Shown: in pieces, positions 873 to 31,327 of the stretch
How the letters are laid out: every line of letters starts with the position of its first letter
Position numbering within the stretch: the first letter of the stretch is position 1
Source of the DNA: Myxococcales bacterium
Lineage (GTDB): Bacteria; Myxococcota_A; Polyangia; Nannocystales; Nannocystaceae
Direction of reading: 5' to 3'
Assembly: GCA_020633295.1 (NCBI GenBank)
Contig: JACKDW010000001.1
Span: forward strand, 1,405,828-1,438,650
DNA: 32,823 nt
Notes under the pieces: model-generated
What the model was told of the DNA's origin: nothing
The model's input: the letters and a program-made list of their open reading frames with translations, nothing else
The model's database searches: none
Position numbers and translations under genes: made by a program

Positions 873-898
873 GCCGCGACGTCAACCTCGGGAGCACC

Positions 899-1822: not shown

Positions 1823-1824
1823 CC

Positions 1825-2874
1825 ATGGTCGGAGAGCTCAGACAGCACGCTCGAAGCGCGCGCGCGGTTGCGCACGCGAACATCGCGCTGGTCAAGTACT
1901 GGGGCAAGCGACCAGGTGCGGGCGAGGACCTCAACCTCCCGGCGGTCGGCTCGCTGTCCATGACGCTCGATCAGCTGCGCAGCGAGACCGAGATCGGGCC
2001 GGCGGACGCGGACGAGGATCGCTTTGAACTCGACGGTGAGCTCGTGACCGGCGCGGTCGCGGCCCGCTCGTTTCGTCACCTCGATCGGATCTGGCGCCAC
2101 TTCGGGGGCGAAGGGGCCACGCGCCCTGCCCTGCGCGTCCTCTCCCGCAACTTCGTCCCCACGGCCGCCGGCCTGGCCAGCTCGGCCTCGGGCTTCGCCG
2201 CCCTCACGCTCGCCGGGACGGCCGCGCTGACCACCGCGCTCGACGGGGCGTCACCGCGGGATCGGTTTGCCCCGCTCTCAGCGCTCGCGCGTCGTGGCTC
2301 TGGTTCGGCCGCGCGCTCCCTGTGGGGCGGGTTCGTGCGGCTCGATCGCGGTGAGCGCGACGACGGCTCGGACTGCCGCGCGCGCCCGCTGTTTGCTCGC
2401 GATCACTGGGACCTCGAGTTGCTGGTGGTCCACACCGCGCGCGGCAAGAAGTCGATCGGCTCGACCGAGGGCATGACCCGCAGCCGCGAGACCTCGCCCT
2501 ACTACGCCGCGTGGGTCCGCGAGTCCAAGGCTGATCTGGACGCGGCCGAGCAGGCGCTCGGACGTCGCGACCTGACCGCGCTCGGGGCCACGGTCGAGCA
2601 CAGCTGCTTCAAGATGCACGCCTGCATGCTGGCCACGCGCCCGCCGATCCTCTACTGGAACGGCACGACCCTCGAGGTCATCCGCGCGTTGTGGGACGCG
2701 CGGGCCGACGGACTCGAGGGCTACGCGACCAGCGACGCCGGCCCACACGTCAAGGTCCTCTGCCGCTCCGAGATCGCCGCCGCGCTCTCCGAGCGACTCG
2801 CGCGCGTCACCGGCGTGCTCGGGATCGATCGCGTGGGACCCGGGCCCGACGCCCACGTGGAGGTCCTCCCGTGA
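1825..2874 (+). CDS. mvaD: Diphosphomevalonate decarboxylase
   Basis: Signature NIALVKYWGKR near the N-terminus and an MVD-like GLASSASGFAAL P-loop. The start is 3 bp after the mvk stop. Confidence 0.85.
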   Translation: MVGELRQHARSARAVAHANIALVKYWGKRPGAGEDLNLPAVGSLSMTLDQLRSETEIGPADADEDRFELDGELVTGAVAARSFRHLDRIWRHFGGEGATRPALRVLSRNFVPTAAGLASSASGFAALTLAGTAALTTALDGASPRDRFAPLSALARRGSGSAARSLWGGFVRLDRGERDDGSDCRARPLFARDHWDLELLVVHTARGKKSIGSTEGMTRSRETSPYYAAWVRESKADLDAAEQALGRRDLTALGATVEHSCFKMHACMLATRPPILYWNGTTLEVIRALWDARADGLEGYATSDAGPHVKVLCRSEIAAALSERLARVTGVLGIDRVGPGPDAHVEVLP

Positions 2875-5153
2875 CGGACGTGTTCGTCTCGGCGCCCGGC
2901 AAGGCGTTCCTGATCGGCGAGTACGCGATCCTGCACGGGGCGCCGGCGATCGTCACAGCGGTCGACGTACGGGCCTTCGCCCAGGCCGCCAGCAGGTCGG
3001 GCGTCGAGACGCCGATCGTGCGCTGCACTCGAGCGGCGGTCGCCGACGCCCTCGAGCGTGACATCCCGTCCCTCGGACCGGCGCCGTCGGTCGATACGAG
3101 GGCGTTCGCGCCGGGCCGCCGCAAGCTCGGTCTCGGCTCGAGCGCTGCGGTGGCCGCCTGTGTGGCCGCATATCACCTTCGACGCGCCAAGCCGGACGCC
3201 CCCGCGGAGACGCTGCGGGACGAGATCTTCGCCCGCGCCTTCGACGGGCACCGCGCGGCCCAGGACGGGCGCGGCAGCGGAGCGGACGTCCTGGCGTCGG
3301 TCTACGGCGGCTCGCTGAGCGTCCGGCTCGCGGGTGGTCGGTGCGCGATCGAGTCGCGACCGCGCGCCGACTGGCTCACGATCGGCTTCGTCGACGCCGG
3401 CGCGCCCGCCAGCACCACGTCGTTTGTCCGGGCCATCGAGGCCGCGCGAGCCCGCGACGCGGACGCGATCGAGCAAGGGATCAGCCAGCTCGCGCAGGCC
3501 AGCGCGCGCTTCCACGCCGCGTTTCGCCCGTTCGCGCCCGGTGACGTCGCGGCGGCGCTGTACGCCGAGCTTCGGGCCGCCACCCTGCTGCACAACGACG
3601 GGCTTCGCCAGCTGCAGCGGGCCGCCGATGTCCCGATCATGACGGAGGCGATCGAGACGATCCTCGCCGTGGCGACGGAGTTCGGCCTGGCCGCCAAGCC
3701 TAGCGGCGCCGGCGGGGGCGACCTCGTCGTCGTCTTCGCCCACGAGCCAGCCGCCCTCGACCGCTTCGCCGTCGCGCTGCAACGCGAGCACGGGCTCGCG
3801 CTGCTTCGACACCTGCGACCGTCCGCGCCGGGGCTGCGCTTTGAGGCCCGCGAGCCGGCGACCTCCCGCCTCGCGGGCTTCTTCAAGCTCGACATCGCCG
3901 CGCGGCGGGCCGCGGTCGCCCACGCGGCTGGGATCGAGCCGACGAGCTTCTCCTCGGTCGACATCGGCGCGCTCGGGCTCGAGAGCGCCGACAACCTGAT
4001 CGAGAACGTCGTCGGCACCCTCGAGCTGCCCTTCGCCATCGCCACCAACTTCGTCGTCAACGGCCGCGACTTCCTCGTGCCCATGTGCGTCGAGGAGGCC
4101 TCCGTGGTGGCCGCGGCGTCGAACGCCGCGAAGATGATCCGCGCCGGCGGCGGGTTCGTGGCCCACGCCGATCCACCGTGGATGATCGCGCAGATCCAGC
4201 TCGCGCGCTGCCGTGCGGGGGGACTTCGCGCGGAGGAGGCCGCGGCTCGGATCACGCGCGAGCGCGACGCCCTGCTCGAGCTGGCCGATCGCGCCCATCC
4301 GCGTCTGCGCGCCCGCGGCGGCGGCTCCCGCGAGCTCGAGGTGCGCGTGCTCGCCGAGGACATGCTCGTCGTGCACGCGATCATCGACTGCCGCGACGCC
4401 ATGGGCGCCAACCTCATCAACACGATCGCCGAGGAGCTGGCGCCGGCGATCGAGCGCATCACCGGCTGGGCCGCAGGATTGCGGATCCTCAGTAACCTCG
4501 CCGACCGCCGCTGCTCGCACGTCGTCGCGCGTGTGCCCCCCTCGGCCCTCTGCGCCAACCTGCCGTCCAACGAGTGGACCGCCGACGCGGTGGTCGAGCG
4601 CGTGGTCGCGGCCTCGCGCTTCGCCGAGCTCGATCCCTACCGCGCGGCGACCCACAACAAGGGGATCATGAACGGGGTCGACGCGGTGATCCTCGCGACC
4701 GGCAACGACTGGCGCGCGATCGAGGCGGCGGCCCACGCCTACGCGGCCCAGGGCGGTCGCTACGCGCCGCTGGCGATCTGGCGAAAGGGCGCGGACGGCT
4801 GGCTCGAGGGTCGCATGTCGATGCCGACGGCCGTGGGCATGGTCGGCGGCGCGACCAAGGTCCACCCCGCCGCCCGCCTCGCGCTCGATCTGCTCGACTG
4901 TCGATCGAGCGCGGAGCTCGGCGAGGTGATCGTGGCCGCAGGGCTGGCCGCGAACCTCGCGGCCCTGCGCGCGCTGGCGACCGAGGGCATTCAACGCGGG
5001 CACATGTCCCTGCACGCGCGCTCGATCGCCCTCGGCGCCGGGGCCACGAGCGACGAGCTCGAGGCGCTCACCGAGCAGCTGATCGCGTCCGGCGAGATCA
5101 AGCACGAACGCGCGATCGAGCTACTTCGCGCCCTGCGGGCGACACGCCGCTGA
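2871..5153 (+). CDS. In-frame fusion of phosphomevalonate kinase (N-terminal ~330 aa) and class II HMG-CoA reductase (C-terminal ~430 aa)
   Basis: GTG 2871 overlaps the mvaD TGA (GTGA). The N-terminal half has GHMP/PMK motifs SAPGKAFLIGEYAILHG, KLGLGSSAAVAA and KPSGAGGGD. The C-terminal half matches class II HMGR throughout (ENVVGTLELPFAIATNFVVNGRDFLVPMCVEEASVVAAASNAAK, DAMGANLINT, DPYRAATHNKGIMNGVDAV, ATEGIQRGHMSLHAR). There is no stop or frame change at the junction near 3840-3860. Confidence 0.75.
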   Translation: MTDVFVSAPGKAFLIGEYAILHGAPAIVTAVDVRAFAQAASRSGVETPIVRCTRAAVADALERDIPSLGPAPSVDTRAFAPGRRKLGLGSSAAVAACVAAYHLRRAKPDAPAETLRDEIFARAFDGHRAAQDGRGSGADVLASVYGGSLSVRLAGGRCAIESRPRADWLTIGFVDAGAPASTTSFVRAIEAARARDADAIEQGISQLAQASARFHAAFRPFAPGDVAAALYAELRAATLLHNDGLRQLQRAADVPIMTEAIETILAVATEFGLAAKPSGAGGGDLVVVFAHEPAALDRFAVALQREHGLALLRHLRPSAPGLRFEAREPATSRLAGFFKLDIAARRAAVAHAAGIEPTSFSSVDIGALGLESADNLIENVVGTLELPFAIATNFVVNGRDFLVPMCVEEASVVAAASNAAKMIRAGGGFVAHADPPWMIAQIQLARCRAGGLRAEEAAARITRERDALLELADRAHPRLRARGGGSRELEVRVLAEDMLVVHAIIDCRDAMGANLINTIAEELAPAIERITGWAAGLRILSNLADRRCSHVVARVPPSALCANLPSNEWTADAVVERVVAASRFAELDPYRAATHNKGIMNGVDAVILATGNDWRAIEAAAHAYAAQGGRYAPLAIWRKGADGWLEGRMSMPTAVGMVGGATKVHPAARLALDLLDCRSSAELGEVIVAAGLAANLAALRALATEGIQRGHMSLHARSIALGAGATSDELEALTEQLIASGEIKHERAIELLRALRATRR

Positions 5154-5327
5154 CCGACGCGACTGGTTTGCGTGATCGATTCGCCGCGCTGAGGCGTCCG
5201 TCACAGCGCCGCTTTACAGAACCAGTAGGATGCACCCACACTTCCCCCGGTATCGCGCGCCCGCGCCCGCTACATCCCCCTACCTATCGACTGGACTGCG
5301 TCCCGCTTCCCGATTTGGAGCCGCGAG

Positions 5328-6299
5328 ATGGTGAACGCCACAGAACCCCGCCTCTTCTGCGTCCCCGCGCCGACCGCTGACGAGCGCGACGAGGACTACA
5401 CGCCCCCGGACGGCGCCCCGCCCGGGCCGTGGTCGCTCGCCAGCGCCTATCGCTACTGCGAGCGCCTGGCCACGACCCACTACGAGAACTTCCCCGTCGC
5501 CTCGCGGTTCATGCCGGCCCACCTGCGCGGGAACGTCATGGCCATCTACGCGTTCGCGCGCACGGCCGACGACTTCGCCGACGAGCCGCGCTACGCCGAC
5601 CGCCGCGTCGAGGCGCTGAACCGGTGGGAGACCCTGCTCGAGGCCTGCTACCACCGCGACGTCGAGCACCCGGTGTTCCTCGCGCTGCGCGACACGGTGC
5701 GTCGCCACAACATCCCCATCGGCCCGCTCAAGGATCTCCTGACCGCGTTCCGCATGGACCTCACCAAGCACCGCTACAACACCTTCCAGGAGATCCGGCA
5801 CTACTGCCGCCACTCGGCCCACCCGGTCGGGCGCCTCGTGCTCTACGTCCACGGTCACCGCGCCCCCGATCTCCACCGCTTCAGCGACGAGATCTGCGCG
5901 GCCCTGCAGATCGCCAACTTCCTGCAGGACGTCTCCGTCGACCTGCCCCGCGGCCGCTGCTACCTGCCCGAGGAGGACCTCGTGCACTTCGGCGTCACGC
6001 GCGAGGACCTGCTCGCGCGTCGCCACACCCGCAACTTCCTCGACCTCATGGCCTTCTCGGTCGTGCGCGCGCGCGCCATGTTCCTGCGCGGTCGCCCGCT
6101 GATCCGCCAGGTCTCGCCCGGCCTGTCCATGGAGCTCGACACCATCTGGGGCGGCGGCATGGCGATCCTGCAGCGCATCGAGGACATGGGCTACAAGGTC
6201 CTCGACAGCCGGCCGACCCTCGAGAAGCGCGACATGGCCGGCATCGCGGTGCGCTCGCTGTTCCGCTTCGGGCGCCGCTTCATCCGCGGCGAGGTCTGA
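5328..6299 (+). CDS. hpnC: Squalene/phytoene synthase family enzyme, HpnC-like (hydroxysqualene synthase)
   Basis: YCERLATTHYENFPVASRFMPAHLRGNVMAIYAFARTADDFADE is an HpnC-type N-terminus. GGAG lies 8 nt upstream of the ATG, and the gene is first of an hpnC-hpnD-hpnE order. Confidence 0.7.
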   Translation: MVNATEPRLFCVPAPTADERDEDYTPPDGAPPGPWSLASAYRYCERLATTHYENFPVASRFMPAHLRGNVMAIYAFARTADDFADEPRYADRRVEALNRWETLLEACYHRDVEHPVFLALRDTVRRHNIPIGPLKDLLTAFRMDLTKHRYNTFQEIRHYCRHSAHPVGRLVLYVHGHRAPDLHRFSDEICAALQIANFLQDVSVDLPRGRCYLPEEDLVHFGVTREDLLARRHTRNFLDLMAFSVVRARAMFLRGRPLIRQVSPGLSMELDTIWGGGMAILQRIEDMGYKVLDSRPTLEKRDMAGIAVRSLFRFGRRFIRGEV

Positions 6300-6409
6300 G
6301 ACCAGGACCAGAACTGGACCAGGATCGGGACGAGCACGAAGGCGAAGGAGCGCGGAGGCTTGAGTACGGACGTGCGACGAGGGACGGAGGAGCGCGGGGG
6401 CGAACGCGC

Positions 6410-7357
<948 letters not shown>

Positions 7358-7432
7358 CGCGGCGCCCCAGCGACACGGGCCGTCGAGGCTGCAGAGGCCA
7401 CAAGAGCTGCAAGGAAGCAGGAGCGAGCAACA

Positions 7433-8764
7433 GTGCGACGCGTCGTGATCATCGGAGGCGGACTCGCCGGGCTGGCCTGCGCCGTGCGCCTGGCGGGCGC
7501 GGGCCAGCGCGTCACGGTGGTCGAGGCCACCAAGCGCGGCGGCGGGCGCTCGCGCTCGTTCCCCGACTCCTCCTTCGGCCGCGAGCTCGACAACGGGCAG
7601 CACCTGATGATGGGCTGCTACCGCGAGACGCTCGCGCTCCTGCGCACGCTGGGCACGCAGGACGGCGTGCGCTTCCAGCAGAACCTCGCCATCGAGATGG
7701 CGCGACCGGGCGGGCGGCGGATCCGGCTGCGCTGCCCCGCCCTGCCCGCGCCCATGCACCTCGTCAGCGGGCTGCTGACCATGCGCGGGCTCGGGGTCGT
7801 GCACCGGGCCTCGGCGCTGCGCGCCGGCCTCGTGCTCAGCGGCGAGGTCCGGCGCCCCGACGACAACGAGACCTGCGACGCCTGGCTCACGCGCATGGGC
7901 CAGACGACCGCGATCCGCAACGCGTTCTGGGAGCCGCTGATCTGGGCGGTGCTCAACGACGACCCGCTGATCTGCTCGGCCGCGATGTTCATGGCGGTGC
8001 TCGAGCGCGCGTTCATGGGCACGCGCGACGACTCGCGCCTCGGCGTGCCCTGCGTGCCCCTGAGCCAGCTCTACGTCGATCAGGCCGCCGACTACGTGCG
8101 CGCCCGGGGCGGCGCGCTGCGCTTCGGCGCGCCCGCGCGGTCCGTCGCGCGCGCGGGCGCGACGCAGCGCGTGCTGCTGAAGTCCGGCGAGGCGCTCGAC
8201 GCCGACGTGATCGTCGCCGCGGTCCCGCCGCGCGCGCTGCTCGAGCTGCTCGACGACGTCGCCGACTCACCTGTCTTTCAAGACATCAAAAAACTCAAGA
8301 CCGCGCCGATCGTCAACCTGTGGTGCGAGCTCGACCGCTCGCCGCTCGGCGGCGCCGAGATGATCGGCCTCGTCGGCAGCCCGCTGCACTGGCTGTTCGA
8401 CCGCAACGTCATCGAGCGCGCGCCCCCCCGCGCGCCGGTGCTGCTCAACTGCACGATCTCGGGCGCGCGCGGCTGCGTCGATGACTCGCCCGCGGCGCTG
8501 CGCCAGCTGCTGCAGGACGAGCTCGCGCGCTACTTCCCGGGCCCGCCGGTGACGATCCAGCGCTGCCGCGTGATCAAGGAGAAGCGCGCGACCATCTCGC
8601 ACGCCGCCGGGACCTACCAGTGGCGCCCCGAGACGCGCAGCCCGATCAAGGGGCTGTACCTCGCGGGCGACTGGGTGCGCACCGGGCTGCCCGCGACGAT
8701 CGAGTCTGCGGTCCAGAGCGGCCACCAGGCGGCGGCCGCGATCCTCGAGGACGCGACGCGCTGA
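7433..8764 (+). CDS. hpnE: Squalene-associated FAD-dependent desaturase / hydroxysqualene dehydroxylase (amine-oxidase-like)
   Basis: GTG start gives an N-terminus (V)RRVVIIGGGLAGLACAVRLAGAGQRVTVVEA, a Rossmann dinucleotide-binding motif. The C-terminus GLYLAGDWVRTGLPATIESAVQSG is the FAD-binding tail of the phytoene-desaturase/HpnE family. It follows hpnC and hpnD directly. Confidence 0.7.
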   Translation: MRRVVIIGGGLAGLACAVRLAGAGQRVTVVEATKRGGGRSRSFPDSSFGRELDNGQHLMMGCYRETLALLRTLGTQDGVRFQQNLAIEMARPGGRRIRLRCPALPAPMHLVSGLLTMRGLGVVHRASALRAGLVLSGEVRRPDDNETCDAWLTRMGQTTAIRNAFWEPLIWAVLNDDPLICSAAMFMAVLERAFMGTRDDSRLGVPCVPLSQLYVDQAADYVRARGGALRFGAPARSVARAGATQRVLLKSGEALDADVIVAAVPPRALLELLDDVADSPVFQDIKKLKTAPIVNLWCELDRSPLGGAEMIGLVGSPLHWLFDRNVIERAPPRAPVLLNCTISGARGCVDDSPAALRQLLQDELARYFPGPPVTIQRCRVIKEKRATISHAAGTYQWRPETRSPIKGLYLAGDWVRTGLPATIESAVQSGHQAAAAILEDATR

Positions 8765-8807
8765 CGGCTCACGCGAGCCGCCGCGCGCCGCTCGGGCGAC
8801 GCGGCGC
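8765..8807. terminator. Two adjacent GC-rich hairpins between the convergent hpnE and secreted-protein genes (possible bidirectional terminator)
   Basis: CGGCTC-acgc-GAGCCG (8765-8780) and GCGCCGC-tcgggcgac-GCGGCGC (8785-8807). The second overlaps the stop of the minus-strand gene. No U-tract follows. Confidence 0.35.
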
Positions 8808-10591
8808 TACTCGACGATACGCTGGCCCGGCTGCATCTGGATCTCGTCGGTCGTGCCGTCGTGGGTCGGCAGGTGCAGCGTGCCGAGGTTGACCGCGAAG
8901 GCGTTGAGCCAGTACGGGCCGATCGTGATGCGCTCGTTGAGCGGCCACGCGCTGATGTCGATGGTCCCCTTCACGCCCGGCGTGACCGTGACCTCCCAGT
9001 CGAAGCGCGGGTTGTTCAGCCGCCAGCCGTAGGGGTACGTGCCCTTGTCGGCCTCGTACGGGATGGTCGTCGTGAACTCGCGGGTCGTGTCCTTGCTCCA
9101 CGACAGCTCGTGCTTCACCTGCGTCGTCTTGCCCTTGGTGCTCTTGATCGGCTCGCCGTCGAGCACCGATCGGTAGTCGATCTTCGGCTTGCCGGTGCCG
9201 CCGAGCTTGAAGCCGATCTGCGCGCTGCCGGAGACGAGCCCGAGCAGGCTCAGCTGCGTCCGCGTGACGCTCGCGGGGATCCACCAGTCGATCCCGCAGT
9301 TGCTGCCGCAGCTCTCGAAGGGCGGGGTGAACTGCTTGCCGTGATCGAACTGCAGGTTGTTCGGGATCTTCTCGTCGAGCAGCTTGCCCCCGAGCACCCA
9401 GAGCTTGACGCGGACGTAGGCGCCCGCGGTCAGCACCAGCTCCTTGCCGTCGAACACCTCGCTCTGCTTGAGGCCGACGCTCGAGTAGTAGCTCGCGTCC
9501 GCGTTGAGGACGTGCGGGTCGACGACCGTGCTGTACTCGGTCGCGCCGTAGGTCCGGCCCTTGGTCTTGAGCGTGGTCGGCGAGGTGTCGACCTTGAACT
9601 CCACGGGCACGCGCAGGCCGAAGCCGTACCAGGCGTGCGCGCCGATCTCGAACTCGCCGATGCCGAAGTCCCACTCCTCCTCCCACTCGAAGGAATTGTC
9701 GATGGTGAAGCCCGTCAGGAACTTCGCCACGTAGCTGGCCGCGCCGGTCCCCTGCACCGCGGGCAGGAAGCGCGAGATCGTGGGCGGCAGCGCCGGGTTG
9801 AGCACCGCGGTCGCCAGCTTCGAGTAGTTGAGCACGCCGTCGACGACGGTCGGCACGCGCAGCGACGTCGCCGACGCGCGCGCGAGCGTGCTCGTCGGCA
9901 CCGAGACGCGCGTCGTGATCGTGACGTCCCCGAGGCCCTCGCCGATCGCGTCGAGCAGCGCCTGGTCGCCGCCTTGGTTCATGGCCGCGACGAGCGGGTG
10001 CGACGACGGCTTGCCCGCGAGCTCGGCCTTGTAGGCGTTGAGCGCCGCGCGCTGCGTCTTGGTCAGCTGCTTGACGAGCATGCGCGCGCCCGGGCGCACG
10101 CTCCGGGGCAGCGGGGCCACGCGCGACAGCCCGCCGCGCAGCGCGTCCGCGTCGGTGACGGTGAAGGTCGTCGACGACACGAGCACCGTCGCCTGCGGCG
10201 TCTGGATGACCTGCTCGTCCATCGACGGCGCGCCGAGCAGCGCGCCCTTCGGCAGCGCGGCGAGCTGCGTGTTGAGCTGGTGATGGTTCGCGAGCACCTC
10301 GTCGGCCAGCGCCTCGACCTTGACGTCGCCGCGCCCCGCGACCTTGACCGTGTCGCGCTTGCGCAGCGACAGCGCGCCCTGCTTGACCACCCCGTCCTGC
10401 GCGACGCGGCGCTGCACGAGCGTCGGGCTCGCGTCGACGCTCGCCGCCGACGCGACCTGCGGCGCGAGCTGGAGCGTCAGCAGCGTGACGCCGGCGAAGA
10501 CCAGAACACCGCCGCGACGGGCGCGGCGACGACGAGAACTCGAGATTCCACCCACGGTCGCAGGGTACTCGCATCCCCTCGCGGCGCGCAC
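8807..10591 (-). CDS. Large secreted hypothetical protein (594 aa) with a twin-arginine-like signal peptide; family not recognised
   Basis: GTG start. The N-terminus SSSRRRRARRGGVLVFAGVTLLTLQLAPQVASAAS has an RR n-region, a hydrophobic core and an AxA site. The mature part is compositionally ordinary, beta-rich and Ser/Thr/Gly/Trp/Tyr-rich. The overlapping ORF 8769..10574 is an Arg-rich shadow frame. Confidence 0.6.
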   Translation of the reverse strand: MRAARGCEYPATVGGISSSRRRRARRGGVLVFAGVTLLTLQLAPQVASAASVDASPTLVQRRVAQDGVVKQGALSLRKRDTVKVAGRGDVKVEALADEVLANHHQLNTQLAALPKGALLGAPSMDEQVIQTPQATVLVSSTTFTVTDADALRGGLSRVAPLPRSVRPGARMLVKQLTKTQRAALNAYKAELAGKPSSHPLVAAMNQGGDQALLDAIGEGLGDVTITTRVSVPTSTLARASATSLRVPTVVDGVLNYSKLATAVLNPALPPTISRFLPAVQGTGAASYVAKFLTGFTIDNSFEWEEEWDFGIGEFEIGAHAWYGFGLRVPVEFKVDTSPTTLKTKGRTYGATEYSTVVDPHVLNADASYYSSVGLKQSEVFDGKELVLTAGAYVRVKLWVLGGKLLDEKIPNNLQFDHGKQFTPPFESCGSNCGIDWWIPASVTRTQLSLLGLVSGSAQIGFKLGGTGKPKIDYRSVLDGEPIKSTKGKTTQVKHELSWSKDTTREFTTTIPYEADKGTYPYGWRLNNPRFDWEVTVTPGVKGTIDISAWPLNERITIGPYWLNAFAVNLGTLHLPTHDGTTDEIQMQPGQRIVE

Positions 10592-10618
10592 CCGGCTCGC
10601 CCGCCGGCGCGTCGCTTT

Positions 10619-10639
10619 TACATGACTATAGAGACATAT
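10619..10639. promoter_or_regulatory. Copy 1 of the palindromic AT-rich motif TACATGACTATAGAGACATAT, 28-48 bp upstream of the secreted-protein gene start
   Basis: It is an AT island in about 72% GC DNA with ATGa-N8-ACAT inverted-repeat architecture. A TTGACC -35-like hexamer lies immediately upstream on the coding (minus) strand. It matches the copy at 13491-13511 at 17 of 19 positions. Confidence 0.45.
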
Positions 10640-10722
10640 TAAAGATCACGCGCGGTCAAGGCGGACCGCCGCGACGACGAGCAGCCCGCGGGCCCGCGCG
10701 CGACGAGCAGCGCCGCGGCGCG

Positions 10723-11769
10723 CTACCGCAGCGCCGGGAGCACCGCGACGAGCGCGACGCCGACGACGACCGCGAGGCCGATCAGCGCGACCGCGATGAA
10801 GACCGCGATCGTGCGCGGCGCGGGCCCCTCCGCCGGCGCGCGCCGGTCGCTCGCCTCGACGCCCACGGGCGTCGTCGCCGACGACGACCGCGTGAGCGCG
10901 GCCGCGGTCGCGGGCGCGAGCGAGTTCATCCCCAGCGCCTCGACGAGCACGCCGCCGACCTCCGGGTCGCGCTGGATCGCGGCCGCGGCCGCGAGCGCGG
11001 CGTCCGGATCGCCGAGGCGCTCGTGCGCGTGGATCCGGTACATCGCGAACATCAGGCGGTACTGGTGGGCCTCGGGCACGTCGCCGACGCGGGCCCCGAC
11101 GAGCTCGCGCACGCGCGCCGCGTCGCCCTCGCGGACCAGCACCGACGCGAGCCCGACGCGATAGGCGCTGTCGAGCACCACGTCCTCGGGCGCGGGGTCA
11201 CAGCGCTCGATCCAGGCGCGCGCCGCCGCGAGCGCCCCCAGGCTCGCGGCCGCGCCGGCGAGGTTGACGAACAGGAGGTGGCGAAAGCCCGGGTCGCGCA
11301 GCTCCTCGATCGCGCGCTCGAGCACCGCGCGGCGCTCGAGGTGCTTCCCGCCCATCCCGTAGCCCTGGTTCAGCATCGTCGCGCACCACCACAGCAGGCG
11401 CTGATGCTCGACGCGCGGCGCGGCGCGGACGAGCGCCGCGGCCTCGCGAAAGCGCCGCGCCAGCTGCTCCTGGACGTCCGCGAGCCCCGAGCGCGTGAGC
11501 GACTCGCAGCCGGGCGGCGGGCGCACCGTCGAGTATGGGTTGTCGGGGAGCGGGCGCCCGGCCTGCAGGCGCAGCGCGGCGAGCCGCGCCTCGCCCTCGA
11601 GCGTGTGAGCGAGCCGCGCGGGCTCGAGGCGTCGCCGCCCGATCAACATCTGCACGCCGCAGTACTCGCAGGTCACGCTGCCGCCGGTCTCCTCCACCCG
11701 CGCCGGCGCGCCGCAGCGCTCGCAGCTGAGCACGCGGAGCTCGACGTCAAACGTCCGCTGCATCGTCAC
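10723..11769 (-). CDS. Hypothetical protein with an N-terminal zinc ribbon (CxxC...CxxC), helical repeat region and a C-terminal transmembrane anchor
   Basis: N-terminus LSCERCGAPARVEETGGSVTCEYCGV. The C-terminus TIAVFIAVALIGLAVVVGVALVAVLPALR is a hydrophobic tail anchor. Start is GTG 11769 or ATG 11763. Confidence 0.55.
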   Translation of the reverse strand: MTMQRTFDVELRVLSCERCGAPARVEETGGSVTCEYCGVQMLIGRRRLEPARLAHTLEGEARLAALRLQAGRPLPDNPYSTVRPPPGCESLTRSGLADVQEQLARRFREAAALVRAAPRVEHQRLLWWCATMLNQGYGMGGKHLERRAVLERAIEELRDPGFRHLLFVNLAGAAASLGALAAARAWIERCDPAPEDVVLDSAYRVGLASVLVREGDAARVRELVGARVGDVPEAHQYRLMFAMYRIHAHERLGDPDAALAAAAAIQRDPEVGGVLVEALGMNSLAPATAAALTRSSSATTPVGVEASDRRAPAEGPAPRTIAVFIAVALIGLAVVVGVALVAVLPALR

Positions 11770-11889
11770 CCGCGCACGAGCGTACCAGCGAAGCGCGCGG
11801 GCCCGGGGCCCCGCGGCGAGCGATCGGCCCGGAGGTGCACACGAGCGCGCGCGCCCCCGCGCGCCCGCGCGCCCGTCGAGGCGCGGCGC

Positions 11890-13335
11890 TCAGCCGACCG
11901 GCGGGAAGGTCACGAGCTTGAGCCCGGCGCCCGTCATGTCGGAGTAGGTGTAGGGCTGGTTGAGGCCCGTCACGGTCAGCTGGACCGCGTAGTTCTGCGG
12001 GCTGATCTTGAACGCCTGGTTCGCGCCCTGGTCTACGAGCCAGATGAAGCCGTCGACGTCGACGCTGACCCCGACCGGCGACACGCAGCCCGGGATCGCC
12101 ACGAGCGGCGCGACCGTCGACTTGCTCTTGACGTCGATGACCGCGAGCCCGCAGCCGCCGAGCAGCCCGGCGCCGACGTCGACGGCGTAGTAGGCCCGGT
12201 CCGCGTCCGAGACCATCACGCCGCGCATCGACTGGTTACCCGTGTTAATGAAGCTCCACTGCCCGCTCGCGGCGTCGAAGCTCGCCGCGACGCCGGCGCT
12301 CGCGATCCACGGGTTGCCGTACTGGTCGAGCGCCATGCCGTAGGTCCACATCTGCCCCGAGGGCGGCTGCGGGACCTCGACGCGCTCGACGTCGAGCGTG
12401 TCCCCGTCGATGCGGATGAGCGGCCCCTGCTGCCAACCGATGACCCAGAAGTCGAGGTTCTTGTCGACCGCGCCGCCGTACGGGCCGTAGCTGAGCTGGG
12501 CCAGCGCGGATGACCAGCCCGGCACCGCGACCTCGTCCTCGGCCTCGCCCGTGACGCTGCTCAGCCGGCGAAAGCGCCCCGTGTTGGCCGCGTAGTCGTA
12601 CCAGCCGATCCACACGCGCGGGTTCGCGTTGGCGCAGCCGTCGAGGCCGACCGCGCCCTCCCACGCGACCGGCCGCGGCCCGTGCTGATAATGGTCCGAG
12701 GGGATCGGGTGGTTCCACACCACGCACTCGTCCTGGAACCACGGGTACACGTCCCCGGCGCCGCTCGAGGTCTCGATCACGCCGTTGTTGTTGCGATCGA
12801 CGCAGTCGTCCGGGCGCGCCGCGATCTTCGTGATGCTGCCCGCCGACGGGCTGCCGACGATCCCGCCGCCGCGGTTGACGACGACCGCGTCGCCGTAGAG
12901 GCCGACGGAGGTCCGCGACGGCTCGGAGACCGCCTCGGGCCCCGTCCTGTAGCGCGCGAGCTCGACGCCCGACTTCGTGTCGATCTTCGACACGGTGCCC
13001 TCCGGCGAGTTCGCGATCCAGATGTTCGAAAAGTCAGGCGTGTTGCCGGTCGGCCCCCCGCCCCAGCAGTCGCCGCCGCCGCCGGGCAGCGCGTCGGTCT
13101 CGAAGCCGTCGCCCATGTCGAACTTCATGTCGGCGCCGCCCGAGTTGGTCAGGTCGATGCCCGAGCCGCTCGTCGAGGCCGTGACCCCGGGGCTCGAGAC
13201 GGCGCCGCTGTCGATGTCAGAGTCCGAGTCGCCTGACCCGCCCCCGCCGCAGCCCGCGCCCACGCAGGTGAAGAGCGTGCCCGAGAGGAGCACCGCGCAC
13301 CAAGGGACGACCACCACGAGACCACGACGACGCAT
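11890..13335 (-). CDS. Secreted lipoprotein, probable beta-propeller (Vgb/SMP-30-like repeat character), Gly/Asp-rich N-terminal linker
   Basis: ATG start. The signal MRRRGLVVVVPWCAVLLSGTLFTC is followed by a Cys and Gly/Ser/Asp linker. Repeated blades have the character NIWIANSPEGTVSKID, GFIWLVDQGANQAFKI and GNPWIASAG. Confidence 0.6.
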   Translation of the reverse strand: MRRRGLVVVVPWCAVLLSGTLFTCVGAGCGGGGSGDSDSDIDSGAVSSPGVTASTSGSGIDLTNSGGADMKFDMGDGFETDALPGGGGDCWGGGPTGNTPDFSNIWIANSPEGTVSKIDTKSGVELARYRTGPEAVSEPSRTSVGLYGDAVVVNRGGGIVGSPSAGSITKIAARPDDCVDRNNNGVIETSSGAGDVYPWFQDECVVWNHPIPSDHYQHGPRPVAWEGAVGLDGCANANPRVWIGWYDYAANTGRFRRLSSVTGEAEDEVAVPGWSSALAQLSYGPYGGAVDKNLDFWVIGWQQGPLIRIDGDTLDVERVEVPQPPSGQMWTYGMALDQYGNPWIASAGVAASFDAASGQWSFINTGNQSMRGVMVSDADRAYYAVDVGAGLLGGCGLAVIDVKSKSTVAPLVAIPGCVSPVGVSVDVDGFIWLVDQGANQAFKISPQNYAVQLTVTGLNQPYTYSDMTGAGLKLVTFPPVG

Positions 13336-13490
13336 GTTGTTGCGCTACCACAGAAGCCGCGCCGCGTGGGCTCCGACGCGCGCGCGCCGAGGCGCGGCGG
13401 GCGAGCGACCGCGGCGCCGCGCCGCGGCCCCGAACTCCGTGTGCACACAACGTTCTCGAGCGGCCCGGCCGCGACGTCGCGCGCTCCGGG

Positions 13491-13511
13491 TACATGTCTA
13501 TACAGACATCC
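13491..13511. promoter_or_regulatory. Copy 2 of the palindromic motif TACATGTCTATACAGACATCC (perfect ATGTCT-N4-AGACAT inverted repeat), upstream of the beta-propeller lipoprotein gene
   Basis: It is an AT-rich island about 155 bp upstream of the minus-strand start at 13335 and downstream of the kinase stop. Its half-sites ATGTCT/AGACAT are exact reverse complements. A TGTGCACA palindrome lies 40 bp away at 13442-13449. Confidence 0.45.
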
Positions 13512-13615
13512 CAAAACCACAGGTCCCAAAGCTCAGGCTCGTTTTCACGCGCGCGCGCTCCGCGCGCGCGCGCCGGCGAGATCGCGCCGACCCGACGCGC
13601 GCCGCCGCGCGCCGC

Positions 13616-16270
13616 TCAGGCGCCGCGCGCCGCCGCGTTGAGCCGCTCGACCAGCACGTCCGGCGAGACCGGCTTCGTCATCACGTCGGCGATGCCCAGC
13701 TCGCGCAGCGTCAGCATGTTCTCCGGGGTCACGAAGCCCGAGGTCGCGATCACGAGCGCCTCGGTCGCGCGCTCGCGCTTGATGACGCGGCACAGCTCGA
13801 CGCCCGACATCCCCGGCATCCGCAGGTCGACGACGATCGCGTCGAAGCGCTCGGCGTCGATCGCCGTGAGCGCGGCGGGCCCCGTCGACGCCGTGCGCAC
13901 GCTCCAGCCGAAGCGACGCAGGTAGCCCGAGAGCGCGACCAGGAGCACCTCCTCGTCGTCGACGAGCAGCACGCGCCCGCGCTCGACCGAAGGCCGCCCG
14001 CGCGCGCCGCTCGCCGCGCCGCGCCGCTGCACCGCGCGCTCCTCCGACTCGGCCGCCGGGATCGAGATGACGAAGCGCGCCCCGCCCCCGGGCGCGGGCT
14101 CGTGGCGCAGCGAGCCGTGGTGGTCGGCGACGATGCCGTAGGCGAGCGAGAGCCCGAGCCCGGTGCCGTCCCCGAGCTCCTTGGTCGTGAAGAAGGGATC
14201 GAAGATGCGCGCGGCGTGCTCTTCGGCGACGCCGGGGCCGTTGTCCTCGATCACGTACTCGACCCGCGCGCCGTCCTTGCGCGCGGCGATCAGGACGCGC
14301 TTGGCGTGCTCGCGCTCGTCGTCCTGGAGCGCGTGGAGGGCGTTGCTCAGGATGTTGAGGAAGACCTGCTGCAAGCGCACCCGATCGGCGCGCACGGGCG
14401 GCAGCGGGCCGATCTCGCGCACGACCTTGATGTCGGCGAGGCGGAACTGCTCGCTCAGCAGCATGAGCGCGCGGTCCAGCGACGCGCGCGCGTCGATCGT
14501 CTGCATCTCGAGCTCGCTGGTCCGCGCGAACCCGCGGATGTTGTCGACGATCCGCGCCATGCGCTCGATCTGCTCGATGATCAGGTCCTGCTCGCGCGTG
14601 AACGCGACGAGCGGCGCGCTCGGCATGGAGCGCATGGTCTCGACGAAGATCCGGATCGCGGTGAGCGGCTGGTTGAGCTCGTGCGCGACGCTGGCCCCCA
14701 GCTCGCCCATCGCCGCGAGCTTCCCGGCCTGGACCAGCTGCGCCTGCACCCGCTTCAGCTCGGTGATGTCCTGCGCGACCATGTAGAGCCGCTCGACCTG
14801 CCCGCCGCGCAGCTCGGGGATCACGTGCACCGTGAAGTGCATCATCCCGGACGGCATCGGCACGGCGACCTCGCTCGAGGCCAACCGCCCGGCGAGCCCC
14901 TCGTCGAACAGCGGGCGCACGAGCTGGACCAGCGACTCCCCGGCGATGTCGCCGAAGCGCGTGCCGATGACCTGCTCGCGCGTCTGCCCGCGCGCCTCGC
15001 AGTAGCGCTTGTTGACGAAGCGGTAGCGCAGCTCGCTGTCGAGCGCGGCGATCATGACCGGGATGTTGTCGGTGATCAGCAGCAGCTGCTCCTCGCGCGC
15101 GCGCGCGCGTCGCTCGGCCGCGGCCGCGCGCCGCTCGGCCCGCTTGATCGCGGTGACGTCCTGCATCACGATCCCGACCGAGCGCACCACGCCCTCGTCG
15201 ATGATCGGGTACAGCTTGATCAGCCAGTCGTACTCCTGCGCGCCGCCGCGCGGCGGGACCCCGGTGAACGCGAACTCGACCGGCTCGCCCGTCTCGACCA
15301 CCCGGGCGAAGACCGGCTCGACCGGGTCCGCGTGGCGGCCGAGCACCTCGCGGATCGTCCGACCGATGTGCGCATGGACCGGCGCGCCGTTGATCGAGGC
15401 GAGCTGCTCGTTGATCCGCTGGTAGCGCAGGTCGCTCCCGACGAGCGCGAGGCCGACCGGCGTGGTGCCGTAGAGCCGCTGCAGCTCGACGAGCTGGGCC
15501 CGCGCGACCGCCTCGCTCTCGCGCAGCGTCCGCTCGACCGCGCGGCGCTGCGCGACCTCGAGCTCGAGCGCCCGGTTCGCCTCCGTCAGCTGGCGCGTGC
15601 GCTCGGCGACCATCCGCTCGAGCTCCTCGCTCCGCTGCGCGCGCTCGCTCTCTAGGTTTCGCGACTCACGGTGCGCGTGGACGATCGTCGCGCACGTCGC
15701 GAGCAAGGGCTCGAGCGCGTCGACCAGCGACGCGTCGTAGCCCCCCGGCCGGTTCGCGATCCCGACCATCCCGATCATCACGCCGCGCCGGGAGAACGGG
15801 ACGCCGAAGAACGCGCGCAGCGGCGGGTGCCCGGTCGGCACCCCGGTGCTGCGAGGGTCGCGCGCGGGGTCGTTGGCGACGATCGGCTCGGCGCTCGTGA
15901 TCACGCGCCCGAACAGCGTGTCGAGATTTCTGAACTCGAGCCCGCTCTCGACGTGCTGCTCGTAGAACGCGCGCGACGCGGCGTCCCACGCGATGTTCGT
16001 GATCACGTGCGACTTCAGGTACGGAGTCCACACGCCGTCGCGCAGCTCGTGGTGAACCTCGCCGATGAAGCCGTACTCGCTCTCCGTGAGAGCGAGCAGG
16101 CTGTCGAGCAGCGCGCGAAACAGCCGCCTCGGCTCGACGTCGTCGATGTACCGCATCTGCGCGCGGTGAATCGCGGTCAAGAGGTCCCGTGTGAAGCTCT
16201 CCTGCACGTCCCCGGATCCTGCCGCTGACCAGCCGCGCCCGCGACCGCGTCGCTCCTCATGAGCATACAT
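13616..16270 (-). CDS. Cytoplasmic hybrid sensor histidine kinase: GAF, two PAS domains, HisKA, HATPase_c and a C-terminal receiver domain
   Basis: ATG at 16270 gives MYAHEERRG. GAF-like region GFIGEVHH...AFFGVPF, PAS segments, H-box SVAHELNQPL, N/G boxes IEDNGPGV and GTGLGLS, and receiver LLVDDEEV...DLRMPGMSG...K. No transmembrane segments. The upstream in-frame Cys/Arg-rich extension is judged non-coding. Confidence 0.8.
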   Translation of the reverse strand: MYAHEERRGRGRGWSAAGSGDVQESFTRDLLTAIHRAQMRYIDDVEPRRLFRALLDSLLALTESEYGFIGEVHHELRDGVWTPYLKSHVITNIAWDAASRAFYEQHVESGLEFRNLDTLFGRVITSAEPIVANDPARDPRSTGVPTGHPPLRAFFGVPFSRRGVMIGMVGIANRPGGYDASLVDALEPLLATCATIVHAHRESRNLESERAQRSEELERMVAERTRQLTEANRALELEVAQRRAVERTLRESEAVARAQLVELQRLYGTTPVGLALVGSDLRYQRINEQLASINGAPVHAHIGRTIREVLGRHADPVEPVFARVVETGEPVEFAFTGVPPRGGAQEYDWLIKLYPIIDEGVVRSVGIVMQDVTAIKRAERRAAAAERRARAREEQLLLITDNIPVMIAALDSELRYRFVNKRYCEARGQTREQVIGTRFGDIAGESLVQLVRPLFDEGLAGRLASSEVAVPMPSGMMHFTVHVIPELRGGQVERLYMVAQDITELKRVQAQLVQAGKLAAMGELGASVAHELNQPLTAIRIFVETMRSMPSAPLVAFTREQDLIIEQIERMARIVDNIRGFARTSELEMQTIDARASLDRALMLLSEQFRLADIKVVREIGPLPPVRADRVRLQQVFLNILSNALHALQDDEREHAKRVLIAARKDGARVEYVIEDNGPGVAEEHAARIFDPFFTTKELGDGTGLGLSLAYGIVADHHGSLRHEPAPGGGARFVISIPAAESEERAVQRRGAASGARGRPSVERGRVLLVDDEEVLLVALSGYLRRFGWSVRTASTGPAALTAIDAERFDAIVVDLRMPGMSGVELCRVIKRERATEALVIATSGFVTPENMLTLRELGIADVMTKPVSPDVLVERLNAAARGA

Positions 16271-16350
16271 GACAATTGAGGAATTACCGTCGCCGAGCCG
16301 CGGGTAATTGTACCTGCTGCATTTTTGGACAGGTTTGAATTTTTCCGCGT
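16265..16350. promoter_or_regulatory. AT-rich leader/promoter region of the hybrid kinase, containing a degenerate third copy of the TACATGAC motif and an AATTACCG/CGGGTAATT inverted repeat
   Basis: TACATGACAATTGAGGAATTA (16265-16285) matches motif copy 1 at 15 of 21 positions and overlaps the kinase start codon. The inverted repeat is 16282-16289 with 16301-16309. The stretch TTTTTGGACAGGTTTGAATTTTTCC (16322-16346) holds a TACAAT -10-like hexamer on the minus strand. Confidence 0.35.
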
Positions 16351-16379
16351 CGCGTCGCGCCCCACGGGCGCACGCGAGC

Positions 16380-17660
16380 TCACGCGCCCGCGAGCTCGCG
16401 GGCGCTCGGCAGCGGGCGCACGCGCCAGCCGAGCACGAAGCCGAGCACGAGCACGCCCGCCATGATGTACAGCGTCGTGTCATACACGTGCACACGGCTC
16501 GCGCCCTCGGGCAGCGCCGCGATCGCGAGCTCGCGGGTGCGCGTGATCAGGATCGGCCCCGCGATCCCGGCGGCGCTCCAGGCCAGCAGGATGACGCCGT
16601 GCACCGCGCCCACGTTGCGGGCGCCGAACAGGTCGGCGAGGAACGCCGGGATCGTCGCGAAGCCGCCGCCGTACATCGAGAAGATCGTGACGACCGCGAT
16701 CTGAAACAAGAGCCAGCTCCCGCTGGCGCCGAACTGCGGGATCAGCACGAACAGCAGCGCCTGCGCGGCGAAGAAGATCAGGAACACGGCGCGCCGGCCG
16801 ATGTAGTCGGAGATGGTCGCCCAGAAAAACCGGCCGCCCGCGTTAAACCCGCCGATCACCGAGAGCATCACCGCGGCCTGCTCGGGCGTGCGCCCGAACA
16901 CGTCCTGCATTAAAGGTGACCCTTGGGACAGAATTGAGATGCCGGCGCTGATGTTGATGAACAGCATGAACCACAGCAGCCAGAACTGGCGCGTGCGCAC
17001 GGCCTTCCCTAACGTGAGGTCCGGCTCGGCCCTGCTGCCCGCGCCGACCGCCGGGGGCGTCCACCCCTCCGGCGTCCACCCCTCCGGCGGCCGCCTGAGC
17101 GCGCGCGCGGCCAGCAGCATGACGACCGCGTAGACGCCCCCGAGCGTGTAGAGGGTCGCGGGCACGCCGGAGCTGTCGATGAGCCAGCGCATCACGGGCG
17201 CCGCGATCACGGCGCCGCCGCCGAAGCCGAGCACCGCCATGCCGGTCGCCATCCCGCGGCGGTCCGGGAACCACTTCACGAGCGCGCTGACGGGCGAGAT
17301 GTAGGCGAGCCCGAGGCCGACCCCGCCGATCACGCCGTAGCCGAGGTACAGCAGCCACAGCTGCCCGGTCCCGACCCCGAGCCCGCCGACCGCCATGCCG
17401 CCGCCGAACAGCAGCGCCGCGAGCGTCGCCGCGCGCTTTGGACCATGTCGCTCCAGCCAGGTTCCGCCGAACGCCGCGCTGATCCCGAGCAGCGCGATCG
17501 CGATCGAGAAGGTGTAGGCCGACACGCTCGTCCACGCCGGGTGAAGCGCGGCGATCGGCTTGTTGAACACGCTCCACGCGTAGACGGAGCCGACGCAGAG
17601 GTGGATGGCGACGGCCGCAGGCGGGATCAGCCAACGATTCGGCTTCGGCATCGCCGCCAT
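16380..17660 (-). CDS. MFS transporter, oxalate/formate antiporter (OFA)-like family
   Basis: Twelve predicted hydrophobic helices and MFS signature-like GxLxDRxGRR (ISDYIGRRAVFLI). Start taken as ATG 17660 (MAAMPKPNRWLIPP). The upstream in-frame Ser/Arg-rich extension to 18470 is rejected. Confidence 0.7.
   Translation of the reverse strand: MAAMPKPNRWLIPPAAVAIHLCVGSVYAWSVFNKPIAALHPAWTSVSAYTFSIAIALLGISAAFGGTWLERHGPKRAATLAALLFGGGMAVGGLGVGTGQLWLLYLGYGVIGGVGLGLAYISPVSALVKWFPDRRGMATGMAVLGFGGGAVIAAPVMRWLIDSSGVPATLYTLGGVYAVVMLLAARALRRPPEGWTPEGWTPPAVGAGSRAEPDLTLGKAVRTRQFWLLWFMLFINISAGISILSQGSPLMQDVFGRTPEQAAVMLSVIGGFNAGGRFFWATISDYIGRRAVFLIFFAAQALLFVLIPQFGASGSWLLFQIAVVTIFSMYGGGFATIPAFLADLFGARNVGAVHGVILLAWSAAGIAGPILITRTRELAIAALPEGASRVHVYDTTLYIMAGVLVLGFVLGWRVRPLPSARELAGA
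17046..17080. repeat. Perfect 15-bp tandem duplication (GGCGTCCACCCCTCC x2 plus a partial copy) inside the MFS gene
   Basis: Seen directly in the sequence. It encodes the duplicated pentapeptide PEGWTPEGWTP in the central loop and keeps the frame. Confidence 0.8.
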
Positions 17661-28681: not shown

Positions 28682-28886
28682 CGAAAAAACCTGCTTGTCG
28701 GGCACTCTCGAACCTGTAGACTGCCCCCAACTGGCGCGGGTCCACTCCGCCTCGAGGCAACCCACTCGAGCGTCGACCCTGCGCCGCGCCACGAACACGG
28801 TCGCTGCCCCCCTCGTTCAACGCAGCACCAGTGCACCATCGGGCGCTCCAACACGACGAGAGTCAACACAGGAGAAGTCGTCTGCC

Positions 28887-29805: not shown

Positions 29806-30162
29806 TCACGGCCAGCCGACCCACGCGCGCAGGAGCGAGCCGACGACCACGCTGAGCGAGTTGGCCAGCAGCGACCACAGCAGCGCGCGTCGCAGGCCGA
29901 GCGCGCGCATGAGCAGCGCCTCGGTGACGAGCGCGAAGCCCTCGGCGACCGCGAAGAACAGCTCGTAGCGCGAAAGCGGCACGATCGCGGGGATGACCCA
30001 CCAGACCACGGGGTGCGTGATCGCGCTGGCCAGGAAGCCGTATCCAGTACAGACGACGAGCGAGCGCTCGCGCGCGCGCGCGAGCGCGTACGCGTAGACC
30101 GGCGTCTCGACGAGCTGCGTCAACGCGAAGGCCGACAGCCACATCCAGAACCACTCGCTCAT
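29806..30162 (-). CDS. Small polytopic membrane protein (about 119 aa), hypothetical; translationally coupled to the upstream Blh-like gene
   Basis: ATG 30162 overlaps the upstream TGA (ATGA). The protein MSEWFWMWLSAFALTQLVETPVYAYAL... is hydrophobic with 3-4 predicted helices. No lycopene-cyclase-domain PxEE motif was found. Confidence 0.5.
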   Translation of the reverse strand: MSEWFWMWLSAFALTQLVETPVYAYALARARERSLVVCTGYGFLASAITHPVVWWVIPAIVPLSRYELFFAVAEGFALVTEALLMRALGLRRALLWSLLANSLSVVVGSLLRAWVGWP

Positions 30163-31175: not shown

Positions 31176-31327
31176 GCTGTCGCCCCCATGCGCGCGGCGA
31201 TCTTGTCACGGACGCGCGGGCCGGCCAAGCGACGGGGAGCCGGCGCGAGCGCGCGCGCGCAACTTGGCCCACGAGACATGTGCGATCCAACGCGCGAGCG
31301 AGCGCGCCGGCCTGTCGAGCGCGCCGG

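Follow-up and report, generated by a model that had tools for sequence, protein, structure and literature searches.

A short AT-rich palindrome recurs in a stretch of 32,823 nucleotides (nt) of DNA from a metagenome-assembled 'Myxococcales bacterium' (the window, a term that below always means this whole stretch). The G+C content of the window was measured at 71.4%, close to the ~72% given in the first-pass annotation, in which two strong copies and one degenerate copy of the palindrome had been noticed. On the plus strand, positions 3-8764 hold a mevalonate pathway block that is followed by hpnC/hpnD/hpnE-like squalene genes, the last of which, an hpnE-like hydroxysqualene dehydroxylase gene (7433-8764), hosts one of the sites described below (s4). 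Past hpnE the genes lie on the minus strand and encode, in order of position, a secreted protein of 582 amino acids (aa), a zinc-ribbon/membrane protein, a 481-aa protein with a lipoprotein signal and a hybrid histidine kinase; beyond the kinase, genes for an MFS transporter, a methyltransferase, and PP2C and FHA proteins follow on the same strand.

The 582-aa hypothetical protein (8807-10555, minus strand; GenBank H6713_05615; 594 aa if the first GTG at 10591 is used) is encoded downstream of site m1. Its N-terminus has an Arg-rich, hydrophobic, signal-like segment, and it shows no Pfam domain. The 481-aa protein (11890-13335, minus strand), encoded downstream of site m2, has a lipoprotein-type N-terminus (…LLSGTLFTCVGAGCGGGG…) and likewise no Pfam domain; a beta-propeller fold had been proposed for it in the first-pass annotation. 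Its gene is followed in the same direction by the gene for the zinc-ribbon-like membrane protein, of 348 or 388 aa (10723-11769 or 10723-11889, minus strand). The hybrid kinase gene (13616-16270, minus strand; GAF-PAS-PAS-HisKA-HATPase-REC, without a DNA-binding output domain) bears the degenerate copy (copy 3) in its start region.

Palindromic sites in the window

Copy 1 (TACATGACTATAGAGACATAT, 10619-10639) and copy 2 (TACATGTCTATACAGACATCC, 13491-13511) had been reported to share 17 of 19 positions, and direct reading of both sites confirmed the coordinates as well as the identity (10619-10637 versus 13491-13509). A search with the degenerate 19-mer, allowing up to 3 mismatches, recovered only these two copies in the window and 0 in 100 dinucleotide-preserving shuffles, which bears out the earlier statement that a chance match is negligible. 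The inverted repeat ATGTCT-N4-AGACAT by which both had been described is perfect in copy 2, but the left arm of copy 1 deviates from it at one position (ATGACT).

The full unit is longer than this repeat. It is a 20-bp palindrome, ACATGTCT-N4-AGACATGT, in which TACATG extends the earlier motif leftward and which can be read as two 6-bp half-sites around a 6-bp gap, CATGTC-N6-GACATG. Site m1 (copy 1; 10620-10639) reads ACATGACT-ATAG-AGACATAT and site m2 (copy 2; 13492-13511) reads ACATGTCT-ATAC-AGACATCC, with perfect inner arms ATGTCT/AGACAT; both match the family consensus at 14 of 16 positions, and in the 6-6-6 form they become CATGAC-TATAGA-GACATA (m1) and CATGTC-TATACA-GACATC (m2). The window contains four matches of at least 13/16 to the consensus (starting at 8269, 10620, 13492 and 31262), versus 0.00 in 60 shuffles, and three of the four fall within its 2.26 kb of intergenic DNA, versus 0.000 in 300 shuffles. 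The recurrent AT-rich palindrome is therefore real, with sites far beyond chance. The last of the four, a weak match at 31262-31281 (ACTTGGCC-CACG-AGACATGT; 13/16, right arm perfect), is intergenic and lies 86 nt upstream of a 338-aa gene (30159-31175, minus strand).

From site m1 it is 28 nt downstream to the first GTG (10591) of the 582/594-aa gene, 64 nt to the GenBank start (10555) of that gene and, in the other direction, 83 nt to the stop codon of the minus-strand gene that precedes the site. Site m2 follows the stop codon of the hybrid kinase by 104 nt and, in agreement with its description as upstream of the lipoprotein gene, precedes the ATG of the 481-aa gene by 156 nt. The similarity between the copies does not go back to a duplicated promoter or to a mobile element, since the 582/594-aa and 481-aa proteins are unrelated (best BLASTP E=7.5), the 140 nt around the three copies align nowhere beyond the motif and a repeat finder returned nothing relevant. 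Searches elsewhere were equally empty: no Rfam family matched anywhere in the window at gathering threshold, the specific motif pattern had 0 matches in viral contigs, and a literature search with the 8-mers of the motif returned p53 response elements only and nothing for myxobacteria. Short plus-strand open reading frames (ORFs) that start from an ATG within the motif (MTIETY and MTIEELPSPSRG, each closed by a stop codon) were judged to be due to chance.

Copies 1 and 2 might conceivably be alike only as AT-rich core promoter elements, that is, as a -10 box with its surroundings. A -10-like hexamer indeed occupies the centre of both copies on the gene strand (TATAGT and TATAGA). However, conservation of the motif is lowest in its central 4 bp (ATAG, ATAC, TTCA, TTAT, CTCG, TCCG) and resides in the flanking arms; no -35 box is found at a workable distance from the central hexamers; and one copy lies in a coding sequence and others between convergent genes. 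Considering these points, a mere core-promoter likeness is very improbable, and plain promoter similarity or chance in general deserves at most the same slight weight. The TTGACC that had been put forward as the -35 box for copy 1 fares no better, as its distance of 23 bp to the only good -10-like hexamer does not allow the two to pair as a sigma-70 promoter, and no consensus promoter was found.

The degenerate copy 3 had been placed at 16265-16285, over the start of the hybrid kinase. It does overlap that start (in-frame ATG at 16270), but its position is 16266-16286 (TACATGACAATTGAGGAATTA) and only its left half, the 8-mer TACATGAC that it shares with copy 1, is motif-like, making it at best a half-site. 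It matches the family consensus at 10 of 16 positions, no better than chance, and because such matches occur close to the shuffle expectation (21 in the window versus 14.5 in shuffles), copy 3 was not counted as a site. Directly downstream of it on the plus strand (16279-16326) lies an inverted repeat, AATTACC...GGTAATT, and after it a hairpin with a T-run that resembles a terminator (GCGGGTAATTGTACCTGC TGCATTTTTG); the ATG inside copy 3 opens the 12-codon ORF mentioned above. Repeat, hairpin and ORF could belong to a short divergent transcript, or could have arisen by chance.

The site inside hpnE

The site at 8269-8288, s4, was newly recovered and lies within a coding sequence, where it covers codons 279-287 of the hpnE-like gene (ACCTGTCT-TTCA-AGACATCA; 13/16). 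It has a perfect TGTCT-N4-AGACA core (8272-8285) followed by AAAAAA, and its 6-6-6 form is CCTGTC-TTTCAA-GACATC. Codons that end in A or T make up only 3.2% of hpnE (14 codons), and 6 of these 14 sit in the nine codons of s4. The closest relative is found in one of the loci fetched for comparison (identified by L numbers below), L241, where the gene order is the same and HpnE is 83% identical. At the position of s4 its hpnE reads CCG GTG TTT CAG GAC GTC CGG CGG, versus CCT GTC TTT CAA GAC ATC AAA AAA in the window. The palindrome and the A-run thus correspond to a set of substitutions (CCG>CCT, GTG>GTC, CAG>CAA, GTC>ATC and CGG CGG>AAA AAA), without any insertion or deletion. At the protein level the result is V>I and RR>KK, the remaining changes being synonymous. 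The fact that the changes are in frame and either synonymous or conservative, together with the clustering of A/T-ending codons, suggests that the DNA word itself was selected within hpnE, and this codon pattern is the strongest internal evidence for such selection.

Three genomes have a palindrome site at the 3' end of their hpn operon, namely at 8269-8288 in the window, at 11392-11411 in L241 and at 5165-5198 in L368, a locus of a Nannocystis sp. metagenome-assembled genome (MAG). In L241 and L368 it occupies the spacer after hpnE, which in L368 is convergent, and in the window it lies inside hpnE, whose distance to the convergent gene is just 42 bp.

Distribution among relatives and placement of the sites

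To follow the motif beyond the window, a whole collection of genomes was scanned with a pattern fitted to the three window sites. Among the matches listed, at least three fell within Myxococcota of ~70% G+C, two of these in Polyangia bacterium Co_bin.371 and one in the cultivable Nannocystis bainbridge, versus a composition-based chance expectation of ~4e-6 per 10-Mb genome of that G+C. Co_bin.371, the closest sequenced relative, is also the MAG that carries the closest HpnE and a 50% identical homologue of the 582-aa protein. The scan pattern also fits a sequence (…TCATGAATACACGTGTCTTTAAAGACATCTCAAAA…) that is conserved in about 100 loci of the Streptococcus mitis group (L124-L240; e.g. L124, 1537-1560), at an apparent gene start.

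The unit ACATGTCT-N4-AGACATGT is perfect in L207 and, at 2941, in the N. bainbridge locus L226. A period of 14 bp is common among the copies (e.g. GACATGTCTCTCAC GACATGTCTTTATA GACATAAAAAA in Nannocystis), with arrays of up to 3-4 units, and it follows from the fact that overlapping ATGT-N8-ACAT units share an ACATGT junction; ACATGT itself occurs 9 times in the 8-kb Nannocystis locus, versus 0.4 expected. In L226, five clusters of GACATGTC units lie within 8 kb, in nearly every intergenic spacer (coordinates include 2941-2991, 6301-6320, 7193-7226 and 7864-7897), with genes for Usp, lumazine-binding, PP2C and dienelactone hydrolase proteins among the neighbours; one of the spacers is convergent and 37 bp long, and one array starts from a stop codon.

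Loci that were chosen without reference to the motif contained three sites (L001), one site (L241) and one array (L368), which amounts to a density of around one site per 10 kb. The syntenic hpn loci of four other Myxococcota (L242, L243, L245 and L367) lacked the site, save for one marginal 13/16 match in L243. Given its presence in the window MAG, Co_bin.371 and Nannocystis and its absence from these four, the motif is lineage-restricted. It is at the same time lineage-wide in the Polyangia and Nannocystis relatives, and therefore not special to the cluster of three promoters for which it had been described.

Most of the myxobacterial sites lie 4-135 nt upstream of a gene, on the gene calls used, and the downstream genes mostly encode lipoproteins or secreted proteins. 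They include the 582-aa and 481-aa genes of the window, an FG-GAP lipoprotein gene (L199), DUF4215 lipoprotein genes (L207 and L001) and a gene for a multicopper-oxidase-like lipoprotein (L241).

The frequency of the palindrome calls to mind the REP and REPIN families, which are likewise short, lineage-specific, mostly intergenic, sometimes clustered and often close to the 3' ends of genes. It could accordingly be a REP-like extragenic palindrome, a high-copy hairpin of the lineage that acts, if at all, as an RNA or DNA stem-loop (in 3' end formation, mRNA stability or gyrase binding). Its restriction to the window MAG, Co_bin.371 and Nannocystis fits such an origin, as do its almost always intergenic position, often 5-100 nt from stop codons and also in convergent spacers, its tandem arrays and the existence of longer metagenome hairpin families on the same core. 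The latter are perfect hairpins of ~38 nt (CCAGAnnTGACATGTCT-TCCG-AGACATGTCAnnTCTGG) in L256, L293, L297, L300 and L334 (GC 0.65-0.67), with a tandem pair in L334 and a REP/REPIN-like look.

The structural data point the other way. Minimum free energies were -0.5/-4.7 kcal/mol for m1, -3.7 for s4 and -9.0 for m2, versus shuffle means of -0.7 to -3.7, so that for m1 and s4 the hairpin stability does not, or only marginally, exceed that of shuffles. In both of these sites 2-3 positions of the arms do not pair, and the deviations from the consensus in m1, m2 and s4 are not compensated in the opposite arm; in other words, the arms are conserved but their complementarity is not kept. Weak hairpins and uncompensated arms favour the reading of half-sites by a protein over an RNA or cruciform structure. 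A terminator scan flagged none of m1, m2 and s4 as an intrinsic terminator; their stems are rich in A+T within a GC-rich genome, the transcribed strand shows no U-tract after the hairpin, and the T-runs that are present lie upstream of the hairpin on the gene strand. Moreover, the copies have no flanking sequence in common, s4 came about through point substitutions that kept the frame of a conserved coding segment and not through insertion, and the same 14-bp arrays are found in a PadR autoregulatory promoter (see below). Since two of the copies form unstable hairpins and one lies in coding sequence, we consider the REP-like alternative unlikely, and the weaker of the two serious competitors of the operator reading developed below.

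Several other features of these loci are unconnected with the palindrome. A GHMP-kinase (phosphomevalonate-kinase-like) and an HMG-CoA reductase are fused in one ORF in the window (2691-5153), L241 (5512-7818) and L242 (5775-8054), a fusion that was kept in every syntenic Myxococcota locus fetched. Within the GHMP/mevalonate kinase gene of the window (869-1822), an AT-rich island of rare A/T-ending codons (1571-1620; GC 0.55 over 1501-1600) gave no palindrome match. Finally, an AhpC/TSA peroxiredoxin (28695-29720) has an N-terminal Lys/Ala-rich tail of ~190 aa that resembles histone H1 and is encoded by 18 copies of a 12-nt AAGAAGGCCGCC-type repeat (28923-29204).

Candidate regulator and meaning of the motif

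The reading that we favour, at a probability of around 0.55, is that the palindromes are operators of a dimeric winged-helix repressor from the PadR family whose gene lies elsewhere in the genome, outside the window. PadR-family operators have been described as an ATGT/ACAT inverted repeat with a spacer of 8-10 nt (PMC3506622), and a crystal and mutational study of Bacillus subtilis PadR established an 18-bp site, CNTGNA-N6-TNCANG, with the outer C as the most important base (PMC5728393). The ATGT-N8-ACAT geometry that had been linked to PadR-like repressors before agrees with both the repeat and the 6-6-6 layout. The family consensus CATGTC-N6-GACATG has this same layout and, as regards the PadR determinants C6, T8, G9 and A11 with their mates, retains the C, T and G of each half; it has C/G at A11/T18, and specificity may differ between PadR subfamilies. 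In B. subtilis PadR, C-to-A mutants at the CNTG position lower the affinity 19-38-fold.

A direct connection to PadR was found in another phylum. Perfect palindromes are present in at least 26 loci on metagenome contigs of at least 64% G+C, far above the composition expectation. In one of these, L269, a perfect ACATGTCTGCACAGACATGT fills the spacer of a promoter (TTGACA-16-TACATT) that separates a PadR gene (PF03551, E=4.7e-15) from a divergently transcribed gene for MFS efflux; judging from the arrangement, this is the classical layout of an autoregulated PadR. Homologues of the L269 PadR point to the Solirubrobacterales, and in the homologous Baekduia locus the same PadR-MFS spacer contains ATGTC-N6-GACATGTC-N6-GACATGTC, a 14-bp array as in Nannocystis and Polyangia. 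Starting from what could be read directly (the sites, their statistics, the family consensus, its presence in relatives, the recoding of hpnE and this PadR-gene context), we infer for the myxobacterial sites the binding of a PadR protein, repression by that binding and the identity of the effector.

The window itself does not supply the regulator. Pfam scans of 29 of its ORFs, which covered the main coding ORFs, revealed no DNA-binding domain in any of them, and a search of six-frame translations with the PadR hidden Markov model recovered no PadR-family gene in the window or in any Myxococcota locus examined. Both results uphold the earlier remark that no such regulator is encoded here, and they make an unlinked, trans-acting regulator plausible. 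The regulon of an unlinked repressor, as proposed in the first-pass annotation, thus gains from the PadR geometry, from the PadR-MFS promoter elsewhere and from the lack of a regulator in the window, but it requires revision in that the motif is lineage-wide and copy 3 is unsupported.

In mechanistic terms, the full site would be an 18-20-bp palindrome, (A)CATGTC-N6-GACATG(T), of which each monomer of the dimer reads one CATG half-site. On the gene strand m1 is flanked by weak hexamers (TTAATA-16-TAAAAG), a layout like that of TTGACA-16-TACATT in L269; considering this position between -35-like and -10-like hexamers, a bound repressor would keep RNA polymerase off the promoter, and its release by an effector would lift the block. 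Through the sites at 8269, 10620 and 13492, perhaps joined by the weaker ones at 16266 and 31262, one unlinked regulator would control the secreted 582-aa gene together with the lipoprotein/zinc-ribbon operon, and its control may also reach the hybrid kinase and the end of the hpn operon. On the best reading the target set extends well beyond the cluster in the window. Many further targets in the lineage, so far mostly lipoprotein and secreted-protein genes, would belong to this regulator or be divided among several PadR paralogues that recognise the same word.

A number of observations weigh against a PadR operator. A PadR gene is adjacent to none of the myxobacterial sites examined; adjacent, autoregulated PadR genes were seen in Solirubrobacterales contigs only (L269 and L373/L374), that is, in Actinomycetota. 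The innermost base of the half-site is C/G, versus A11/T18 in the B. subtilis operator, and m1, m2 and s4 have CNTG in the left half only, their right halves ending in A or C and not in G. Around 2 of the 11 myxobacterial intergenic sites lie between convergent genes (L226 at 6301 and L001 at 306), and the L368 array after hpnE is a further case; a promoter is not expected in a convergent spacer. One site per 10 kb is a high density for a typical PadR regulon. A scan of 8000-16600 with the sigma-70 consensus found no promoter, and m2 lacks recognisable -35/-10 hexamers. For promoter comparison, homologues of the 582-aa protein were available at 50% and 39% identity. The one readable orthologous promoter, that of the 50% identical homologue in Co_bin.371, is without the site, which speaks against conservation of the sites in orthologous promoters, a check named together with the original description of the motif. 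Finally, the perfect double site in L332 adjoins a MarR-like gene and not a PadR gene.

The L332 case (410-443) leads to the other serious competitor, in which the sites are bound by a different dimeric family or an abundant DNA-binding protein (MarR-like winged-helix or nucleoid-associated, with TGT-N8-ACA specificity) that acts as a global regulator or organiser of envelope and secreted genes. The double site, two overlapping perfect or near-perfect palindromes on a contig of 71% G+C, is located 38 nt upstream of a gene for a 102-aa MarR-like winged helix-turn-helix protein, which is divergent from a secreted PD40-type gene. The lack of PadR genes near the myxobacterial sites would be expected for such a protein, and the high density and the copies in convergent spacers and coding sequence suit a global binder. 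On the other hand, the L332 winged-helix gene has a homologue in no other locus examined, and PadR is the sole family with experimental evidence for this exact geometry and the CATG bases. We therefore regard binding by another protein as possible at low probability, somewhat above that of a REP-like element.

Members of the CRP/FNR family were considered as well. The Myxococcus regulator MrpC, which belongs to this family, recognises GTGTC-N8-GACAC, and the general form for CRP-type sites is TGT-N10-ACA. MrpC and the present system have TGTC...GACA half-sites in a myxobacterial setting in common, and in both a regulator with many target promoters is involved. However, the motif here is TGT-N8-ACA, 2 bp shorter, which a rigid dimer would not tolerate; neither the spacing required by CRP/MrpC nor the central CG required by LacI is present. 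Together with these two, MetJ, LexA, HutC/GntR, MerR and C-protein operators were set aside, as their spacing or central bases do not fit.

Returning to PadR, the operators of B. subtilis PadR at padC, Lactococcus lactis LmrR at lmrCD and Bacillus cereus bcPadR1/2 share with our motif the two 6-bp half-sites and the 6-bp gap. In the clearest cases (L269 and, less surely, the similar layout at m1) they also share the overlap with the -35/-10 spacer, and the identical palindrome occurs in the PadR-MFS promoter. Different are the absence of an adjacent PadR gene, the innermost base noted above, the dispersal of sites before lipoprotein and secreted-protein genes instead of a single detoxification or efflux operon, and the copies in coding sequence, in convergent spacers and in 14-bp arrays of up to 3-4 units. 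As a regulatory site the motif is most likely of a rather common type, its copy in coding sequence being the unusual one. What goes beyond the textbook PadR system is the lineage-wide dispersal of sites at envelope and secreted genes, the 14-bp arrays and the site in hpnE that is formed by codon choice.

Since operators of such geometry are already well known for PadR, general knowledge would gain only modestly. A bolder possibility, which we hold to be rather unlikely, is that a global PadR-like or other winged-helix protein reads a high-copy word throughout the Polyangia/Nannocystia lineage and coordinates its lipoprotein and secreted proteome; at around one site per 10 kb this would amount to perhaps hundreds to a thousand sites per genome. 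If true, the word would be selected strongly enough to be written into coding sequence and to be placed at operon ends, and would form a regulatory or architectural system of global reach that is so far undescribed in myxobacteria. On the PadR-operator reading, the analysis would define CATGTC-N6-GACATG as a concrete, testable regulatory word of Nannocystis and of an uncultured Polyangia lineage, and s4 would cleanly illustrate how codon choice can write a binding site into a conserved gene. One trans-acting PadR-type sensor would then connect several uncharacterised genes for lipoproteins and secreted proteins, perhaps along with the hybrid kinase and the squalene (hpn) operon.

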